DNA of 64,000 bases from Candidatus Bathyarchaeota archaeon (GCA_963782525.1 CAWAKC010000010.1:128001-192000), one strand, 5' to 3'; positions 56,550 to 64,000 are shown, counted from the stretch's first letter. The notes: generated by a model not told the origin, from the letters alone. Program-made: numbers and translations.

Positions 56550-59141
56550 TTATTTATTTTTGAATATGAGTTGACCGTTTTTTTCATCCACGATAATCGT
56601 TGTGTCTTTGTTGACTTTTTCAGATAACATCATCTTTGAAAGTTCGTTTAGGATGTCTTTTTGGATAACACGTTTTATTGGTCTGGCGCCGAATTGAGGA
56701 TCAAATCCAACATTGGCAATGTAGTCTATGGCTTTTTTGGTGGCTGAAAGTTTTATGTTGTTTTTTTCAAGCATTTGCTCAACTTGTCGTAGCTGCAACT
56801 CCACTATTTTCCGAATTTCCTCTTGGGTGAGGGGTTGAAACATAATTATTTCGTCGATTCGGTTGAGGAATTCTGGTTTGATGCTTTTCTTGAGTAACTC
56901 AAAAACTTGCTCTTTGGTTTGATTTAGGATGTGCTCTCGGTTTTCAGATGTAATTTTTTCCAGGTTTTCTTGGATGAGGTGGGAGCCTATGTTTGACGTC
57001 ATAATGATGATGGTGTTTTTGAAATCGACTGTTCGACCTTTATTATCAGTCAATCGACCATCATCGAGAACCTGCAGTAAAATATTGAAAACATCCGGAT
57101 GGGCCTTCTCGATTTCATCAAGCAAAACAACAGCGTAAGGCTTTCTTCGCACCGCTTCAGTTAACTGTCCGCTTTCTTCATAGCCAACATAACCCGGCGG
57201 GGCACCCACAAGCCGAGAAACGGTATGCCGCTCCTGATACTCCGACATATCAATCCGAACCATATTGTTCTCGTTGTTGAATAGAAACTCTGCTAAAGCC
57301 TTGGCTAATTCAGTTTTTCCAACCCCAGTGGTACCTAAGAAAATAAAAGACCCAATTGGGCGCTTAGGATCTTGCAGGCCAGCGCGACTCCGCCGCAACG
57401 CATCAGAAACCGCTTGGATTGCTTCATCCTGCCCAACAACCCTCATGTGAAGCTCAGTTTCTATGTTTAGCAGCTTTTGCTTCTCAGTCTGTAGCATACG
57501 ACTAACAGGAATTCCCGTCCAGCAAGAAACAACCTCAGCAATTTCCTCCCCACCTACCTCTTCATTTACCAGCGCTGAATCCTTCTGTAACTCTGTTAAT
57601 TTTTTCTTCAAATCCTCAATCGCTTTAGTCGCATTGGGAATTCTGCCATACCGAATCTCGGCAACCCTTCCAAGATCGCCCCGACGGTTAGCATTTTCCT
57701 CTTCAAATTTTAACTGTTCAATCTCATTTTTCTTTGCTTGAATCTGATCAACAATTTCTTTCTCAGCATGCCACTTTGCCCGTAAACTATTGCGTTGCTC
57801 AGTTAAATTTGAGATTTCCTGATTTAGCGACTTGAGCTTAACTTCATTTTTTTCTTGTTTGATGGCTTCACGTTCAATTTCCAACTGCCGAATCTTCCGA
57901 TCAACATCCTCAAGTTCCTGAGGCTCAGAATTGATTTCAAGCTCCAACTTAGAAGCCGCTTCATCAATCAAATCAATCGCTTTATCGGGCAGAAAACGCT
58001 CAGTAATATACCGAGAAGATAACTCAGCAGCTGCAATTATTGCATCATCTCTAATTCGAACGTGATGATACACTTCGTAACGCTCTTTTAAACCTCGAAG
58101 GATAGAGATGGTGTCCAAAACATTAGGTTCATTAACCATAACAGGCTGAAAACGTCTCTCTAAAGCCTTGTCTTTCTCAAAATACTTCTGATATTCCTTC
58201 AAAGTCGTTGCACCAATAGCACGCAACTCGCCTCGCGCCAACGCAGGCTTAAGAATATTAGCCGCATCCATAGCGCCCTCGCCGCCGCCTGCCCCAACAA
58301 GCGTATGAATCTCATCGATGAAAAGCAAGATATCACCCTCTGCTCCCACGACTTCCTTAATTACACTCTTCAAACGCTCCTCAAATTCTCCCTTGTACTT
58401 GGCACCAGCAATCAAAGCACCCATATCAAGAGAAAAAACCTGCTTTGACTTCAAATTCTCAGGAACATCACCATTAATTATGCGCTGAGCAAGGCCCTCA
58501 ACGATAGCTGTTTTACCCACACCCGGCTCGCCGATCAATATAGGATTGTTCTTTGTCCGTCTAGACAGAATCTGAAGAACCCGCCGAATTTCACTGTCAC
58601 GGCCTATAACTGGATCTAATTTTCCAGCCTGAGCCATACTGTTTAAGTTGATGGCGTACTTGTTGAGGGCATTGTAAGTTTCTTCTGCAGTCGCCGAATT
58701 AACAGAAGACCCCTTACGCAACTGACTAATCGCAGACTTGAGATCTTTTTCATTAACACCACTACTTTTGAGCAAACGCGAAGCAGAATCATTCAACGAC
58801 AATATAGCCAACAACAATTGCTCTATCGAAACAAACTCATCCTTAGCAGCCGAAGCCAACTCTTGAGCCTTATGAACTGCCTTATTGGAATTTGATGAAA
58901 GATACTGTTCTCCCCCGCTAACTTTAGGTAAAGAATCAATTTCCTTATCAAGCAACCCTGAGAAAGAGTCAGAGTTGACACCAAGTTTTCTAAGCAAGAA
59001 AGGAACCACATTCTCATCAACAAGCAAGATCCCCTTTAGCAAATGAAGCGGCTCAACAGCCTGATTGCGACCTACAGAAGCAATTTCTACAGCCTTCTGA
59101 ATAGCTTCCTGCGATTTAACCGTAAAATTATTCAAACTCAT
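56550..59141 (-). CDS. clpB: ATP-dependent disaggregase ClpB
   Basis: Clp-N repeats, GKLDPVIGRDSEIRR, GEPGVGKT, coiled-coil M domain, GTTGVGKT, RIDMSEY, GARPIKR; ATG 59141 follows a GGTGG SD. Confidence 0.97.
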   Translation of the reverse strand: MSLNNFTVKSQEAIQKAVEIASVGRNQAVEPLHLLKGILLVDENVVPFLLRKLGVNSDSFSGLLDKEIDSLPKVSGGEQYLSSNSNKAVHKAQELASAAKDEFVSIEQLLLAILSLNDSASRLLKSSGVNEKDLKSAISQLRKGSSVNSATAEETYNALNKYAINLNSMAQAGKLDPVIGRDSEIRRVLQILSRRTKNNPILIGEPGVGKTAIVEGLAQRIINGDVPENLKSKQVFSLDMGALIAGAKYKGEFEERLKSVIKEVVGAEGDILLFIDEIHTLVGAGGGEGAMDAANILKPALARGELRAIGATTLKEYQKYFEKDKALERRFQPVMVNEPNVLDTISILRGLKERYEVYHHVRIRDDAIIAAAELSSRYITERFLPDKAIDLIDEAASKLELEINSEPQELEDVDRKIRQLEIEREAIKQEKNEVKLKSLNQEISNLTEQRNSLRAKWHAEKEIVDQIQAKKNEIEQLKFEEENANRRGDLGRVAEIRYGRIPNATKAIEDLKKKLTELQKDSALVNEEVGGEEIAEVVSCWTGIPVSRMLQTEKQKLLNIETELHMRVVGQDEAIQAVSDALRRSRAGLQDPKRPIGSFIFLGTTGVGKTELAKALAEFLFNNENNMVRIDMSEYQERHTVSRLVGAPPGYVGYEESGQLTEAVRRKPYAVVLLDEIEKAHPDVFNILLQVLDDGRLTDNKGRTVDFKNTIIIMTSNIGSHLIQENLEKITSENREHILNQTKEQVFELLKKSIKPEFLNRIDEIIMFQPLTQEEIRKIVELQLRQVEQMLEKNNIKLSATKKAIDYIANVGFDPQFGARPIKRVIQKDILNELSKMMLSEKVNKDTTIIVDEKNGQLIFKNK

Positions 59142-59438
59142 GCTAACCACCAAAATTATTGGTAAGTCGACTAAACTCTACAAAACCAGAAATGATTTCC
59201 CCCAATTAAAGTTTTAGGCAAAAACCACAAAAAAACTGGATACTAAAAAGCCATCCAGCATCACAATCCTGATGCTTTCTTTTAACTTCAAGATGGTTGA
59301 TAGTTCGCTTCTTCCACCAATTAACTAACGTTCGCGTTAAAAAATTAGCCAAGTTAAAAGAAGAAAAAACTGGTCTATATATAAGACGTTTTTTTCCTTA
59401 AAAGAATCCTTATATGCCATTTTCTGTAGTAGGCTTGC

Positions 59439-59906
59439 ATGGCAGAACCAAAAGATGGTCGACCTATTTTCTTCCCTAAAAAATTAGTTTTGCTCGGCAA
59501 TCTCGCCCTTTTTGTGTGGATTGTTCTTGACGCAGTCGCCTTTCTACTATTTGATTTAACGGTTGGCATTGTGTTTCTTTTGGCGACGCTGATCTTAATT
59601 TATGGTTTACTGCACATTCTCGGTTGTCTGCGACCATGCTACAACTGCATAAAATGCACTCACGGCATGGGACGCCTGGCTGCATTGTACTTTGGCAAAC
59701 GCATCTTCAAAGACTACAAATACAGCTACAAACTGCCCACAGCAATATTCTTCACTCTATATATTGGGGCGTTTCCAGCAGCATTCGCACTCTACTCAGC
59801 AGTCATAGATTTCACAGTCGTCAAAGTAGCGATTTTTGTGGTTCTTTTGGTGTTTACAATCTATAGCGCCTTAACCTGGCAAACCAAAAAACGCTCGAGC
59901 CCATAG
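59439..59906 (+). CDS. Four-TM membrane protein with Cys cluster
   Basis: GCLRPCYNCIKCTHGMGRLAAL between two TM pairs. Confidence 0.75.
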   Translation: MAEPKDGRPIFFPKKLVLLGNLALFVWIVLDAVAFLLFDLTVGIVFLLATLILIYGLLHILGCLRPCYNCIKCTHGMGRLAALYFGKRIFKDYKYSYKLPTAIFFTLYIGAFPAAFALYSAVIDFTVVKVAIFVVLLVFTIYSALTWQTKKRSSP

Positions 59907-59958: not shown

Positions 59959-60414
59959 CTATGCTAATTTTGCTCCGCAATTAATGCATTTGGAAGCGTC
60001 GGGTTGATTTTTGGTTCCGCAGTATGAGCAGATTATCATAGCTGGAGTTGTTTCTTTAATTAACGCTTGGGTTTGAGCTTTGTAGATGTTGTCTCTTATT
60101 GTTCTGTAGGCTTTTTCTGCGTCATCTTTAGGTACATCGATTAGTATTAGCTGTGGTGCTGCGGATTTGAAGGTGCATCTGATTGTTGAACGCAGTATTC
60201 CCTTGTCTATGATTACATTTTCAAAATCTAAGTAGTTGTAGTCAGTGAAGTCTTTTTTTAATCCGAGTGCGTGAGGATGGCGCAAGATTACTCTCTGGTT
60301 GGTTATAACGACCGAGTCAATGTCAATCGCGAGATGGTAAAACTTTTGTTTAATGTAGAGTTCAATGGTCTCGTTAGGATCAAGTATATCTTTCATATCA
60401 TCAGGAGTCGCCAT
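59959..60414 (-). CDS. Bacterial PH-domain + C-terminal zinc-ribbon protein
   Basis: DSVVITNQRVI, KGILRSTI; CSYCGTKNQPDASKCINCGAKL. Confidence 0.85.
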   Translation of the reverse strand: MATPDDMKDILDPNETIELYIKQKFYHLAIDIDSVVITNQRVILRHPHALGLKKDFTDYNYLDFENVIIDKGILRSTIRCTFKSAAPQLILIDVPKDDAEKAYRTIRDNIYKAQTQALIKETTPAMIICSYCGTKNQPDASKCINCGAKLA

Positions 60415-60633: not shown

Positions 60634-62058
60634 ATGCGCAAATTGAATACAAAACAACCCAATGAACCAAATCCACTTGCATCTAAAAACCAGACAACTG
60701 AGCAATTAAACCACCAAGAACTAGCCCAATCAATACTTTCACCGTTTATCCACCTATTCAACATTAATGAAACGACGAAGTGCCTTTTCAACTCTTTAAC
60801 TCTAAAAAAAGTATACTTAACCAATGATATGTACGCTAAGCTTTTAACAGATCTAAGTTTGGGAAACCGCAGTAAAGACGTTGAAAGTTTAATCGATCTG
60901 AAATTTATAGTGCCTCGAGGTTTTGATGAGATAAAAGTGTTTGACAGCATTGCAAACAGCGTGCTCAGAAAAAAACCTTCAACCAACCTTGCATACATTT
61001 TGGTAACGGACTTTTGCAACTTCAGATGCGGTTACTGCTTCATTGAAAACTCTCTAAAAGGGCCAAGCATTTCAATGTCTAAGGATTTGGCAGATAAAGT
61101 CATAAACGTTCTGATCAACGAAGCAAAACAAGTCCCAGAATACAGAGTCACATTTTATGGAGGAGAACCATTCAGCAACAGCGAAATCGTCTTCCACATC
61201 ATCGAAAAACTTGAGCAGGCAGCTAAAGACAAATTCAAATTTTCCTGCGTCACCAACGGAAGTCTAGTAACCGAAGATTTAGCTAAAAAACTCAAACAAC
61301 ACAACGTTACAGTAGGATTATCGCTTGACGGATGGGCCAACATCGACAAAAACCGTGTGTTTACCAATGGAAAAGAAACCTTTTACTCAGCACTTAAAGC
61401 GTTAACGCTCTTAAAAGAAGCCGAAGTAAATGTGGGAATATCATGCACAATCACAAAACAGAACTACCAATACGCAGAAGAAGTAGTTGAATTTATCCAA
61501 AAATTAGGAATCAGAACCATAGGGTTCAATTTGTTAACTAGACTCAAAGAGCCAAGCGAATATGAAGTTCCAGACCCAAAACAACTCGCCCACCACCTCT
61601 TTAACGCATACTTAAAAGCAAACGACTTGCACATGTTTGAAGATCGCATAGGGAATCGGCGAGCAAATTATTTTTTCAAAGAAATATTTCATTTGTACGA
61701 TTGCCCCGCGTTTGGTCAACTAATATTTTTTTCACCAGCTGGAACAGTTGGACCTTGCCACGCGTTCTATCCGTCAGGAAAATATCAAATTCCAATTAAA
61801 GATAATTTGAAAGTCCCAGAAGAACCATTGTTTTACAAATGGTTGGAACTTGGCACCCTAAAGAATAAAGACTGCATGAGGTGTCCTGCCATCGGAATTT
61901 GCGGAGGAGGATGCGCATACGATATATACGTTAAAACAGGTCAACTTGGCATCAAAGAAGACTATTTTTGCACCTTTCAAAATGAAATACTCAAGCTCCT
62001 TCTATCCTACAATTTCCTGATGACCCCTCAAAATAAGCGCAGAAAAACGAAAAGTTGA
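60634..62058 (+). CDS. Radical SAM/SPASM peptide maturase with probable N-terminal RRE
   Basis: CNFRCGYC; FYGGEP; VTNG; SLDG; SPASM Cys set DCPA...GPCH...CMRC...ICGGGC...YFC; ~110-aa N-terminal extension ending LIDLKFIV. Confidence 0.92.
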   Translation: MRKLNTKQPNEPNPLASKNQTTEQLNHQELAQSILSPFIHLFNINETTKCLFNSLTLKKVYLTNDMYAKLLTDLSLGNRSKDVESLIDLKFIVPRGFDEIKVFDSIANSVLRKKPSTNLAYILVTDFCNFRCGYCFIENSLKGPSISMSKDLADKVINVLINEAKQVPEYRVTFYGGEPFSNSEIVFHIIEKLEQAAKDKFKFSCVTNGSLVTEDLAKKLKQHNVTVGLSLDGWANIDKNRVFTNGKETFYSALKALTLLKEAEVNVGISCTITKQNYQYAEEVVEFIQKLGIRTIGFNLLTRLKEPSEYEVPDPKQLAHHLFNAYLKANDLHMFEDRIGNRRANYFFKEIFHLYDCPAFGQLIFFSPAGTVGPCHAFYPSGKYQIPIKDNLKVPEEPLFYKWLELGTLKNKDCMRCPAIGICGGGCAYDIYVKTGQLGIKEDYFCTFQNEILKLLLSYNFLMTPQNKRRKTKS

Positions 62059-62194
62059 AAACTTTCATCTCCAAACAGCAAGAAACCCGCGACCAAGCTA
62101 AATCAAAAAAGCCCGGCAAACAATTGCCAATCTACCAATGTAATAAATGAAAAAGACATGCACACTTTTGACCTTAACTTTGCGCCAGATTAAT

Positions 62195-62217
62195 TTTTAC
62201 AATAAATATAAATATTG
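62195..62217 (+). promoter_or_regulatory. Candidate TATA-box promoter of the precursor gene
   Basis: TTTTACAATAAATATAAATATTG about 30 nt upstream of TTG 62242. Confidence 0.4.
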
Positions 62218-62241
62218 TTACTCACTACAACAATGTAGTGA

Positions 62242-62685
62242 TTGTTTTTGTCAAAAAATAAATCAAAAGCTAAAGCTCCCTCCAAAAAACCCACTTCTAC
62301 AATGCTTAATAAAAATCAAACCCGCGCGGCGCCAAAAAAAATGACCCCAGCCCAAACTAAACGGTTAAAAACAATTTTAGCAAAAATGCCACCTATCGAG
62401 AAAATAGATCCTGCAATGTATGCGAAGCTACAGTCAACGATTCATGATGTAGTAGTTAAAGCGTTGCCTGAATACCAGCAATGGGTGGGCGCAAACCTGG
62501 TAGCTGATGACTGTCCGACACCCTTGTGTAGCTCATGCGGCAACGATTGCCCAACTCCGTTATGTAGTTCATGTGGAAATGACTGTCCGACGCCAATTAA
62601 AGACATTGATGATCTTGTCAATTCGGCTGTCGAAAAGGCAATGACCGCGGCAATTCGTCAAGCTTTGGAAAAACAATTCAAATAA
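62242..62685 (+). CDS. Putative multi-core Cys-rich RiPP precursor
   Basis: Basic/helical leader, (DCPTPLCSSCGN)x2 + DCPTP, helical follower; lies between two radical SAM genes. Alternative ATG starts at 62302 and 62341. Confidence 0.8.
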   Translation: MFLSKNKSKAKAPSKKPTSTMLNKNQTRAAPKKMTPAQTKRLKTILAKMPPIEKIDPAMYAKLQSTIHDVVVKALPEYQQWVGANLVADDCPTPLCSSCGNDCPTPLCSSCGNDCPTPIKDIDDLVNSAVEKAMTAAIRQALEKQFK

Positions 62686-62745
62686 AGATTATTTTCCAAC
62701 CAGAAACACAAACGCTCAATGAACAACAGTTAGCAAAATATTTCG

Positions 62746-62827
62746 CCTATTGCGCTATAACGCAATAGGTATTCTAAAAACCCCCTTCAGGCAAGACCAG
62801 GCAGGCTGGTCCTCTGCCTGAGTTTTT
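62746..62827 (+). terminator. Two stem-loops downstream of the precursor, the second followed by a T tract
   Basis: CCTATTGCG-CTATAA-CGCAATAGG (62746-62769); TCAGGCA.GACCAG...CTGGTC...TGCCTGA then GTTTTT (62787-62827). Confidence 0.6.
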
Positions 62828-62987
62828 AATCGTAAAAAACGCTTAATATTATTACAGAAAATTTGATAAATACACTAACTTCGGTTGCCTATCGTTCGAT
62901 CAATGTTTTGTAATAATAGAACAAGATTAAATCTATGTGTAGCATATTTGGAAGTTCTCCCACAAACAATCTTAGAAAGGTTACAAA

Positions 62988-64000
62988 ATGCGTGTAATTC
63001 TTTGTATCCCTCCAGTTTCTTCGTTAGTTCCTTATCCTGCAATTCCATACTTAACAAGTAGTCTGAAGGCAAATAATCAAAAGGTTAGTACTTTTGATCT
63101 GAACATTAAGGCTTTTAATTCAACTCTTTTTCGCATAGGCGTGGATATTAAGCCCGGAAAAATTTTACGTAACATTAATCCTGGCGTAAGCGCGAAATGG
63201 ACCAAAGTTCCTGAGGCAAATATTTACTCGACCATGCGAGAGAGCAAAGAAATTTTCGAAGAAATTATGTCAGAAGAGGCGGCTGATCAATTAGGTTGTC
63301 CCCATTCAAACTTAAAGTCCAGATATACCATAACCACAGAAGTAAAACAGCAAATAATTTCGGATGTTTGGAAAACTTGTAACAATTGGTTATCGGAGCT
63401 TGCCAGTGATACCAAAGAACAAAGTATTATAGGCTTCCATGTAATTAGTCAAACTGGATTGTTGTGGAGCATACTTCTTTCGCGAAAATTAAAGAAAATT
63501 CTTCCCAGGATTTTAACAGTCTTGGGAGGTCCGGCATTCCTCGCATGGGGCAAAGTTCTCTCTACCCATCCCGAAATTGACATAATAGTTCGAGGGGAAG
63601 GCGAGACAACAATCTCTGAAATAGCAAATTTCTATGACGGAAGCTTAGAATCAATAAAAGGAATCAACGGAATTTCATACCGAAACAGAGAAAATAAAAT
63701 TATTACCGTTGCGGACCGCCCATTAATAAAATCTCTTAATGCTTTGCCTTTTCCCAATTATGATGATTTGCCATTAAAAGAATACCCTCAGAACAAGTTC
63801 GAGATGCCTATAATTCCAGTTGTCGGCTCTAGAGGATGCATTGGAAACTGCGTTTTTTGTGTTGAAAAACGCTTATGGGGGAACACCTATCGGATGCGTA
63901 CACCTGAAAATATCTTATCCGAATTCAAAAATATTAAAGAAAAATGTGGGCCTTCTTTTATTCGCTTCAACGACAGTTTAATTAATTGTAATATAAAGTC
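62988..64000 (+). CDS. Cobalamin-binding radical SAM enzyme (class B methyltransferase-like), truncated by the window end
   Basis: Hand translation MRVILCIPP...YPAIPYLTSSLKANNQKVSTFDLN...VLGGPA...IDIIVRGEGE...GSRGCIGNCVFC...YRMRTPENILSE; the CxxxCxxC motif is in frame with ATG 62988. Absent from the ORF track because there is no stop in the window. Confidence 0.92.
   Translation, partial: MRVILCIPPVSSLVPYPAIPYLTSSLKANNQKVSTFDLNIKAFNSTLFRIGVDIKPGKILRNINPGVSAKWTKVPEANIYSTMRESKEIFEEIMSEEAADQLGCPHSNLKSRYTITTEVKQQIISDVWKTCNNWLSELASDTKEQSIIGFHVISQTGLLWSILLSRKLKKILPRILTVLGGPAFLAWGKVLSTHPEIDIIVRGEGETTISEIANFYDGSLESIKGINGISYRNRENKIITVADRPLIKSLNALPFPNYDDLPLKEYPQNKFEMPIIPVVGSRGCIGNCVFCVEKRLWGNTYRMRTPENILSEFKNIKEKCGPSFIRFNDSLINCNIK

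Follow-up and report, generated by a model that had tools for sequence, protein, structure and literature searches.

The locus described here raises the question of what two radical S-adenosylmethionine (rSAM) enzymes and a small Cys-rich protein encoded between them do together in an archaeon. The three co-oriented genes lie at the end of a 64,000-nucleotide stretch of DNA from Candidatus Bathyarchaeota archaeon (GCA_963782525.1 CAWAKC010000010.1:128001-192000; G000:C10:128001-192000 in our numbering), which is called the window below and is part of a 233-kb contig. An earlier interpretation made from this sequence (the sequence-only reading) had taken them for a new archaeal system of the ribosomally synthesised and post-translationally modified peptide (RiPP) type. 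We found that the three genes are real open reading frames (ORFs), all on the plus strand, and that they belong to a larger cassette. This cassette, present in some soil and sediment Bathyarchaeia, pairs a peptide-modifying rSAM enzyme with a small helical protein bearing repeated Cys motifs, most likely in order to cross-link and methylate that protein. The kind of system is already known; the Bathyarchaeia family has not been described.

The first gene encodes the enzyme called the maturase below. As had been read from the sequence, it carries the radical SAM motif C-N-F-R-C-G-Y-C (CxxxCxxC) followed by seven more Cys toward the C-terminus, and about 120 residues precede its rSAM core. It matches Pfam Radical_SAM with an E value of 8e-22; the Pfam SPASM model gave no match at E<=0.01. 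The Cys of the rSAM cluster motif (C128/C132/C135) and exactly seven SPASM Cys (C357/C375/C414/C417/C423/C427/C446) are invariant in 47/47 aligned relatives, and the spacing of the latter in the translation, CX13GX4C ... CX2CX5CX3C ... C, fits the pattern CX9-15GX4C. The top NCBIfam matches are peptide maturases, namely FibroRumin (TIGR04136, 1.2e-52) and PapB (NF047865, 6.5e-44); CefB, QhpD (TIGR03906, 7.8e-33, residues 37-448), nif11-type and SCIFF maturases were matched as well, and several of the top families (PapB, QhpD, SCIFF) are thioether-forming. The orthologues form a discrete clade of about 55 proteins with at least 70% identity, the next relatives being 44-47% and bacterial SPASM proteins about 30% identical. 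The nearest relatives outside this clade (P0176, P0181, P0182 and P0186; 38-47% identity) are 571-595 amino acids (aa) long and have GNAT acetyltransferase Pfam domains fused to rSAM/SPASM.

The AlphaFold 2 (AF2) model of the maturase has a predicted local distance difference test score (pLDDT) of 89.1 and a predicted template modelling score (pTM) of 0.86. Its best structural match is CteB, the SCIFF thioether synthase (Z 35.3, root-mean-square deviation 3.5, 406 aligned), which is also the best match by sequence in the PDB (4.8e-24; TigE, 8vpo, follows at 1.5e-19). The alignment places model residues 36-464 on residues 1-450 of the chain, i.e. over the full length including the N-terminal domain. 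The first ~100 residues of CteB are its RiPP recognition element (RRE), as a figure legend in PMC13692751 implies, and on the model residues 33-110 of the maturase are predicted to correspond to this domain and to be RRE-like. They are built from strands (33-35, 39-43, 48-53, 59-63), helices (64-76, 81-88), a further strand (92-94) and a helix (99-110) in a beta3-4/alpha3 arrangement, with pLDDT above 89 in these blocks, and the NCBIfam maturase profiles begin aligning at residue ~36. The N-terminal RRE fold suspected in the sequence-only reading is therefore borne out as a prediction, CteB being aligned from its residue 1.

The second gene encodes the putative substrate, the Cys-repeat protein. 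Its N-terminus, M-F-L-S-K-N-K-S, is common to the homologues, and its repeated unit, C-P-T-P-L-C-S-S-C-G-N-D, is present in two full copies. The protein matches no Pfam or NCBIfam family at E<=0.01, and a protein atlas search with it gave no usable match. We found 128 relatives at E<=0.01 among 149 candidates. When 53 members of the family were scanned against Pfam and NCBIfam at E<=1, none matched a significant family, the matches being weak and scattered, and the known RiPP leader families NHLP and Nif11 appeared in 0/53. The commonest match, Pfam LppA (31/53 members, best E 3.5e-5), was taken as compositional similarity of Pro/Thr-rich sequence. Members of the substrate family are 140-200 aa long; each has a tail that is basic and disordered, and a conserved scaffold of helices that carries the units.

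Motif and Cys counts were made on 120 listed members of the 128. In these, the motif C-x-x-C-x-x-Z ends in D (186), Q (86) or E (7) in 279/284 cases, and Asn stands just before Z in 270/284. The number of Cys is 3n+1 in 94 members, 3n in 18 and other in 8; Cys content is 4.8% in the 147-aa protein and reaches 9% at most. From 76 canonical units of 37 genes the consensus is C1 P2 (T/V)3 (E/P/Q)4 (L/I)5 C6 S7 (S/A)8 C9 (G/S)10 N11 (D/Q/E)12. There are 1 to 4 or more units per gene, and close relatives differ in unit number.

Conservation of the motif was observed directly, and so was selection on the peptide. The two units of the window gene differ in 10/12 codons, and all of these differences are synonymous, leaving no amino-acid change. 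For this reason Tandem Repeats Finder detected no DNA repeat in 62000-63000, a null that is not evidence against the repeat. Within-gene unit pairs showed 269 synonymous and 91 non-synonymous codon differences in 672 comparisons. Because the differences are mostly synonymous, the repeats are old as DNA while the peptide has been kept constant, i.e. selection acts on the peptide; the all-synonymous differences and the 128 relatives together indicate that the repeat is more than chance.

In the AF2 model of the Cys-repeat protein (53 sequences), residues 1-29 are disordered, helices span 36-47, 52-55, 57-90 and 122-146, and the unit region, 90-117, is disordered with pLDDT below 50. Conservation, expressed as the majority-residue fraction, is highest in residues 33-88 (0.80), followed by the units (0.74), the C-terminal helix (0.70) and the basic tail (0.50). 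Residues 1-32 contain 9 K/R, no D/E and no hydrophobic stretch. Compared with 48,161 PDB representatives, the model had no meaningful look-alike, the best matches (Z 5.3) being generic helical hairpins. A complex prediction of the maturase with Cys-repeat residues 30-147, both given as alignments and run without controls, scored 0.01 against a mark of 0.32; it gave no verdict and weighs on neither side of the question of binding. In the divergent members P0239 and P0243 the scaffold is kept and the core is changed; a conserved, presumably recognised part with a variable core is the pattern of RiPPs. The sequence-only reading had called the protein a multi-core Cys-rich precursor. The repeated Cys units and the role of a plausible substrate hold, whereas the arrangement is not that of a leader with a C-terminal core, the units lying in a disordered loop between conserved helices.

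A further paralogue, of 196 aa and three units, occurs by itself on contig C3 of the same genome (L006:10035-10625, minus strand). This and other stand-alone paralogues (L056:7956-8471, L057:7953-8450) are 165-196 aa long, have an extra basic C-terminal tail and adjoin pairs of small AbrB/RHH-like and PIN-domain-like genes, which look toxin-antitoxin-like from their translations.

To see whether the genes belong together, we compared their neighbourhoods; linkage and co-occurrence are direct observations. The order rSAM/SPASM, Cys-repeat, B12-type rSAM, an optional second Cys-repeat gene and a methyltransferase fusion described below recurs in nine loci (G000 and five sister genomes), among which the flanking genes mostly differ. 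A genome scan with one genome per species gave 30 Cys-repeat loci in 20 metagenome-assembled genomes (MAGs), a set that overlaps the nine loci and is not independent of them. A maturase gene (at least 60% identity) adjoins the Cys-repeat gene in 25/30 of the scanned loci, so the small Cys-rich ORF next to the enzyme, on which the sequence-only reading depended, is kept at homologous loci. The B12-type rSAM gene occurs in 20 of the 30, the fusion in 22, all three in 20 and none in 5; all 5 lone Cys-repeat loci are in MAGs with a cassette on another contig. Among 41 related genomes, the Cys-repeat protein and a maturase orthologue (E<=1e-60) were found in the same 6 (G000, G001, G002, G012, G020 and G023) and neither in the other 35, a consistent pattern rather than a statistical test, as these genomes are kin and not independent. 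Clustering of ORFs of at least 80 aa in 31 loci revealed no other small conserved ORF in the cassette that could serve as substrate of the maturase, and no protease or transporter recurring near it. The view that the maturase has no plausible substrate other than the Cys-repeat protein, and that the three genes are functionally linked, is thus supported.

Of the 20 MAGs, 19 are labelled Bathyarchaeota. The only non-archaeal label among the 30 loci belongs to L058, a 10,426-base contig labelled Candidatus Sulfotelmatobacter; since this contig is short and the maturase on it shares 75% identity with that of the window, a binning error is more probable than transfer to Acidobacteria. Besides cassette genes and antisense shadow ORFs, every ORF cluster was limited to at most 7/31 loci, and the commonest neighbour is an 880-aa protein (6/31 loci). 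A 486-aa ORF whose N-terminus looks transposase-like from the translation occurs near the cassette in 4/31 loci (L037:13123-14583 and three others), and, if it is one, its recurrence would fit a mobile or patchy distribution.

The third gene is cut by the end of the window. In its own genome it is complete, encoding 529 aa (L005:4988-6577) and ending 577 bases past the window, so that the expectation that the cluster continues proved right. The 337-aa part in the window matches Pfam B12-binding with an E value of 6e-7 (29.7 bits, cut-off 32.1) and also Radical_SAM, to which the full protein matches at 3.4e-16. Its NCBIfam matches, ApyD (4.7e-42), HpnJ (4.8e-41), TIGR03975 (1.1e-40) and BchE, lie in the range 1e-38 to 5e-42, span residues 146-460 and are all below their cut-offs (TIGR03975 139.8 bits against 281.85). 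In the PDB, 9ccb (2.2e-19), CysS (2.7e-10) and TokK (6.7e-6) were matched. From its sequence the gene product is a putative B12-type rSAM enzyme, which may bind cobalamin and transfer methyl groups.

Beyond it, the sequence-only reading had expected a protease, a transporter and further maturases. None of the expected kind was found; the next gene encodes instead a methyltransferase fused to a copy of the scaffold of the Cys-repeat protein. Residues ~190-310 of this fusion are a class I SAM methyltransferase (Methyltransf_31, 1.3e-22), and residues ~8-144 are a homologue of the 147-aa protein by hhalign (probability 99.5%, E 1e-22), the alignment running through the N-terminal helices and the C-terminal helix and leaving out precisely the Cys units. 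In L005, L028, L029, L030, L032 and L033 the ORF of the fusion is intact, with 367-402 aa. It appears to derive from a duplicated substrate gene, because a remnant G-N-D-C is still present in the fused copy of P0246 and P0248 and because, in several loci, the fusion is immediately preceded by another Cys-repeat gene. The nearest structures and NCBIfam families do not reveal the specificity of the methyltransferase: its best matches are class I enzymes that have not been characterised, and CypM (1.5e-5) and LahSB (3.5e-4) stand among numerous weak ones. A methyltransferase with a core-less copy of its presumed substrate's scaffold is the most original element of the cassette. The domain architecture is, like the linkage, directly observed; the coordinates of all features are given in Table 1.

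Table 1. Coordinates of the cassette features, counted from the first letter of the window unless a locus or contig is named
Feature	Location	Strand	Basis or remark
RRE-rSAM/SPASM peptide/protein maturase	60634..62058	+	ORF, 474 aa
Predicted RRE-like (winged-helix) N-terminal domain of maturase, residues ~33-110	60730..60963	+	AF2 model
Cys-repeat scaffold protein, putative substrate	62242..62685	+	ORF, 147 aa, TTG start
Cys units, residues 89-118: two 12-residue units and terminal C-P-T-P, 7 Cys	62506..62595	+	Sequence
GC-rich hairpin then U-run, 3' of Cys-repeat gene, before B12-type rSAM gene	62775..62828	+	RNA fold
Radical SAM enzyme with putative B12-binding domain, N-terminal 337 aa of 529	62988..64000 (window end, open)	+	ORF
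Scaffold-methyltransferase fusion, 402 aa, outside window	L005:6648-7856 = G000:C10:192648-193856		Directly downstream of B12-type rSAM gene

What, then, might the cassette do? The explanation that we favour, and whose chances of being right and wrong we hold to be about equal, is a RiPP-like system that puts thioether cross-links and methylations on a loop of a small helical protein, probably without excising the loop. How the proteins bind, which chemistry takes place and at which sites, in what order the steps follow, and what becomes of the product and what it does are what we infer in the following scheme. The locus would be a four- to five-gene RiPP-like protein-modification cassette with the Cys-repeat protein as substrate, in which a flexible loop on the helical scaffold presents 1 to 4+ units of the form C-P-x-x-x-C-S-(S/A)-C-x-N-(D/Q/E). 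The maturase may dock through its RRE-like domain on the conserved N-terminal part of this protein and, through a site that the 7-Cys SPASM domain leaves open on auxiliary cluster I, form intramolecular ranthionine-type thioethers from Cys to nearby acceptors, the likeliest link joining the third Cys of a unit with the D/Q/E that follows three residues later. The B12-type enzyme would then methylate one or more unactivated carbons, and the class I methyltransferase a heteroatom, the latter being recruited, to the substrate or to the complex, through the scaffold copy that it carries. The product would probably stay in the cell as a small protein.

The sequence-only reading had the product right in kind as RiPP-type; we consider a modified small protein of the Crp or QhpC kind more likely than a released peptide, because no protease or exporter is linked and conserved helices flank the units on both sides. 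If the cassette made a classical released RiPP, the protein would have a long N-terminal leader and a C-terminal helix as follower, and an unlinked protease would free the multi-unit core or single units as a thioether peptide. In keeping with this, the leader-like part is conserved and the core varies in the divergent members, the unit number ranges as in multi-core precursors, and proteusin-type precursors (NHLP, Nif11) are known with long leaders of ~80-90 aa. A hairpin also follows the precursor gene (-24.1 kcal/mol, z -3.74; 1/200 shuffles folds as well), an arrangement typical of RiPP operons; judged by its sequence it is a candidate attenuating terminator and could possibly set the ratio of substrate to enzyme transcripts. 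Yet the C-terminal helix is conserved about like the leader (0.70 against 0.80), the N-terminus lacks a hydrophobic stretch and has the K/R-rich, D/E-free composition given above, the 53 members include neither NHLP nor Nif11, no protease or transporter recurs, and the methyltransferase carries both the N- and the C-terminal helices as a single domain that lacks the units, which speaks for a folded unit rather than disposable flanks. We therefore consider a released peptide unlikely and return to the modified protein.

A more specific form of the modified-protein explanation concerns recruitment, and we offer it tentatively, as more probably wrong than right. In this undescribed logic the units would be a loop on an autonomous helical domain, and the methyltransferase, with its core-less copy from a duplicated substrate gene, would either pair with the substrate scaffold or occupy the RRE of the maturase and so build a complex of substrate and enzymes ('substrate mimicry'). 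The outcome would be a protein that is stable inside the cell, its Cys/Asn/Asp loop stapled by thioethers and methylated, and that serves Bathyarchaeia of anaerobic soils as a metal- or redox-active module.

A number of observations weigh against the proposed modified protein, and the first of them concern the chemistry. The maturase is below the curated cut-off of every named NCBIfam maturase family (bits against cut-off: FibroRumin TIGR04136 179/400, PapB NF047865 150/340, QhpD 114/453, SCIFF TIGR03974 102/425, the CrpC family TIGR04463 94/525), and enzymes with other chemistry have Z scores similar to that of CteB: ChlB 34.0, anSME 32.5 and the cyclopropyl synthase TigE 31.1. TigE aligns from 29-466 of the model to its 3-465; ChlB and anSME align only from residue ~113. 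The B12-binding match of the full third protein is below the Pfam gathering score (28.9 bits against 32.1, E 1.1e-6), and three Cys per unit exceed the need of one C-x-x-D/Q link. On the grounds of the maturase scores and structural neighbours, the same substrate could undergo C-C or C-O cross-linking, epimerisation, or Cys/Ser oxidation as in anSME, its cysteines having another, later role; that the unit positions Pro2, Ser7, Asn11 and Leu/Ile5 are conserved as well would suit this. Against it, the SPASM Cys number seven, not eight, as in the thioether enzymes CteB and CrpC, and C-x-x-D/Q/E is the acceptor motif of known ranthisynthase substrates. In anSME, both auxiliary clusters are fully ligated. 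CrpC is described with the same number, of which three Cys are predicted to ligate auxiliary cluster I and four to ligate cluster II (PMC13692751). TigE makes cyclopropylglycine (PMC10878394), hence homology alone does not fix the chemistry of the maturase. A Gly-Tyr-Trp (GYW) motif that ligates auxiliary cluster I is reported to be unique to all cyclopropyl synthases (PMC10878394). A radical SAM cyclopropyl synthase of the TigE/TvgB type was rejected, as GYW is present in 0/47 aligned sequences and, in the phmmer alignment, the TigE stretch holding it faces a maturase stretch without Tyr. Another chemistry on the same substrate appears distinctly unlikely to us; the thioether and C-methyl chemistry of the sequence-only reading nevertheless stays something that we infer, the structural neighbours including a cyclopropyl synthase and anSME.

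On the same side of the balance, the spacing C-x2-C-x3-C-P weakly resembles metal or iron-sulphur (Fe-S) motifs, with Fer4_9 matching 6/53 members (best E 0.049) and a Zn-finger region of DNA polymerase II matching 18/53 (best E 0.071). The units, spaced C-x4-C-x2-C-x3-C-P, might accordingly bind a metal or Fe-S cluster, the protein serving as electron donor, cluster carrier or metal buffer for the neighbouring rSAM enzymes, which would act on something else. Radical SAM enzymes do need reductants, and in the Crp study the modified protein is suspected to have a function linked to metal (PMC13692751). Compared with the ferredoxin motif CxxCxxCxxxCP, however, the unit (C-x2-C-x3-C-P) is missing the middle Cys, and Fer4_9 and Fer4 (2/53, best E 0.97) are far below their gathering scores, so that no Fer4 match among the 53 members is significant. 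Multiples of four would be expected for [4Fe-4S] clusters, in contrast to the 3n+1 and 3n found in 94/120 and 18/120 members; unit number differs even between close relatives; the maturase has a predicted RRE-like peptide-recognition domain and no other small conserved ORF as its substrate; and a scaffold-methyltransferase fusion would be senseless for a ferredoxin. A metal- or cluster-binding accessory protein is for us very unlikely.

The remaining points against the modified-protein proposal lie in the models and in the distribution. The scaffold model is only moderately confident (mean pLDDT 65, pTM 0.41). Among the genomes searched, matches are confined to one narrow lineage, occurring in 5/24 other genomes of the genus and in 0/16 from other families of the same order, and an exhaustive profile search of 1.84 billion representative proteins gave no more than 18 at E<=0.001, including the methyltransferase fusion; because all evidence of linkage comes from this lineage, the synteny may partly reflect shared ancestry. 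Moreover, in several other MAGs (loci L027, L030, L032, L035, L036, L045, L050, L051, L055 and L060) cassette genes are split into 2-5 collinear tblastn pieces, as by frameshifts. Very long contigs are common among these assemblies, and indel error of long-read assembly is as likely a cause as real decay.

The surroundings of the cassette were also inspected. The genes after the fusion (387 aa and 175 aa) have no Pfam family and were not found in the other loci, and an Alba gene, recognised from its translation, lies 9 kb downstream. Upstream are a ClpB-like 867-aa chaperone read from its translation (56550-59153, minus strand), a 155-aa protein of no family that looks membrane-embedded (59439-59906, plus strand) and a bacterial-PH and zinc-ribbon protein (59959-60414, minus strand; bPH_3 1.5e-11). 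As only the last is shared, with one other locus (G012), these neighbours were placed outside the cassette. Divergent cassettes (L062:8787-12413, L058:917-2732, L063:8702-9819) contain extra rSAM/SPASM-like genes, 23-26% identical to the window enzyme, and further small Cys-rich ORFs, e.g. of 80 aa in L062 and 116 aa in L058, which suggests from sequence that some lineages may have larger multi-maturase clusters. A search of sequencing runs found six DNA runs with small shares (0.05-0.19) of the sampled words and no RNA run among the matches.

Literature searches for Bathyarchaeota or Bathyarchaeia together with radical SAM and RiPP, biosynthetic gene cluster or ranthipeptide found no papers, and 'FibroRumin' none; the papers listed for Bathyarchaea with SPASM all concern glycerol dialkyl and glycerol monoalkyl glycerol tetraether (GDGT/GMGT) lipids. 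In a survey of archaeal RiPPs (PMC12144867), a term search finds ranthipeptides named once and Bathyarchaeia never. The cassette would give a first candidate product for Bathyarchaeia, which are abundant, uncultured and, in the literature searched, without characterised RiPP-like chemistry. The novelty claimed by the sequence-only reading holds in that the family is undescribed and has no Pfam or NCBIfam entry; it is smaller than claimed, since cross-linking of a Cys-repeat protein by an archaeal SPASM enzyme was published in 2026 (PMC13692751).

This closest known system is Crp of Methanococcus voltae. According to the main text of that paper, the TIGR04463-family RRE-rSAM/SPASM enzyme CrpC puts ranthionine-type thioethers on the 28.8-kDa Cys-repeat protein CrpA at the motif C-X-X-Q/D, CrpB shares the first 47 residues of the substrate and raises the extent of modification, and no protease or exporter is known (PMC13692751). 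The likenesses to the cassette are several. Both are archaeal, and in both an RRE-rSAM-SPASM enzyme with seven SPASM Cys stands beside a Cys-repeat protein of more than 100 aa; both have C-x-x-D/Q in the repeats (the cassette units also E); in both a second protein, CrpB or the methyltransferase fusion, shares the N-terminal domain of the substrate; and in neither is a protease or exporter linked, the product being thought to stay a protein. With 279/284 motifs, 25/30 adjacency and a shared domain at 99.5%, the cassette has the features of a Crp-like modified Cys-repeat protein as a functional class, not as a sequence family.

The differences are equally clear. The cassette maturase is outside TIGR04463 and the substrates are unrelated; the cassette unit has 12 residues and 3 Cys and lies in an internal loop between conserved helices, whereas the Crp motif, as described in the main text, has 17 residues, is repeated 10 times and is at the C-terminus; the cassette adds a B12-type rSAM enzyme and a class I methyltransferase; and the host is a member of the Bathyarchaeia instead of a methanogen. 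The main text of the Crp paper does not mention Bathyarchaeia, cobalamin or tailoring methyltransferases, and its screen was for proteins with at least 10% Cys (PMC13692751). None of our members (0/120 listed) passes that screen, and the family would escape it because its Cys content is below 10%.

Cross-linking of whole proteins, as opposed to short peptides, by rSAM enzymes has only just been demonstrated in archaea, with Crp (PMC13692751). The cassette would add another example, unrelated to the first and far more compact, with a tractable substrate of ~140 aa in which a 12-residue unit is repeated 1-4 times, and with two additional tailoring enzymes. Its natural enzyme-scaffold fusion makes it directly testable how such enzymes find their substrate.

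Other known systems share parts of the cassette. The ranthipeptide maturases PapB, of freyrasin, and CteB, of SCIFF, are likewise RRE-rSAM-SPASM enzymes with Cys-rich substrates and a short spacing from Cys to acceptor (C-x3-D for PapB; C-x2-D/Q/E here); PapB is the second-best NCBIfam match of our maturase and CteB its best solved structure over the full length. Their substrates, however, are short, with an N-terminal leader and a C-terminal core, whereas that of the cassette has 140-200 aa and conserved flanks on both sides. QhpD cross-links Cys to Asp/Glu in QhpC, the small subunit of quinohemoprotein amine dehydrogenase, and is like the cassette in that an rSAM/SPASM enzyme cross-links within a small protein that stays a protein. 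Unlike there, no dehydrogenase subunits, peptidase or heme protein are near the cassette, and the maturase reaches 114 bits against 453. QhpD is cited as a precedent by the Crp paper (PMC13692751).

The two tailoring enzymes have their own parallels. Proteusin pathways, such as that of polytheonamide with its B12-rSAM C-methyltransferases PoyB/C and its N-methyltransferase PoyE, combine, as the cassette is predicted to, a long recognition region in the substrate with one or more B12-rSAM methylases and a class I SAM methyltransferase, and TIGR03975, the 'RiPP maturation radical SAM C-methyltransferase' family, is matched at 1.1e-40. The cassette differs in having neither an NHLP/Nif11 leader (0/53) nor an epimerase, in its Cys-rich core and in a TIGR03975 score below cut-off. 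In borosins, a methyltransferase is fused to its own precursor, so that, as here, methyltransferase and precursor-derived sequence form one polypeptide. The fused part of the cassette enzyme is, by contrast, an N-terminal recognition scaffold without core units, and the substrate has a separate gene; for these reasons it looks like a docking module rather than a self-substrate.

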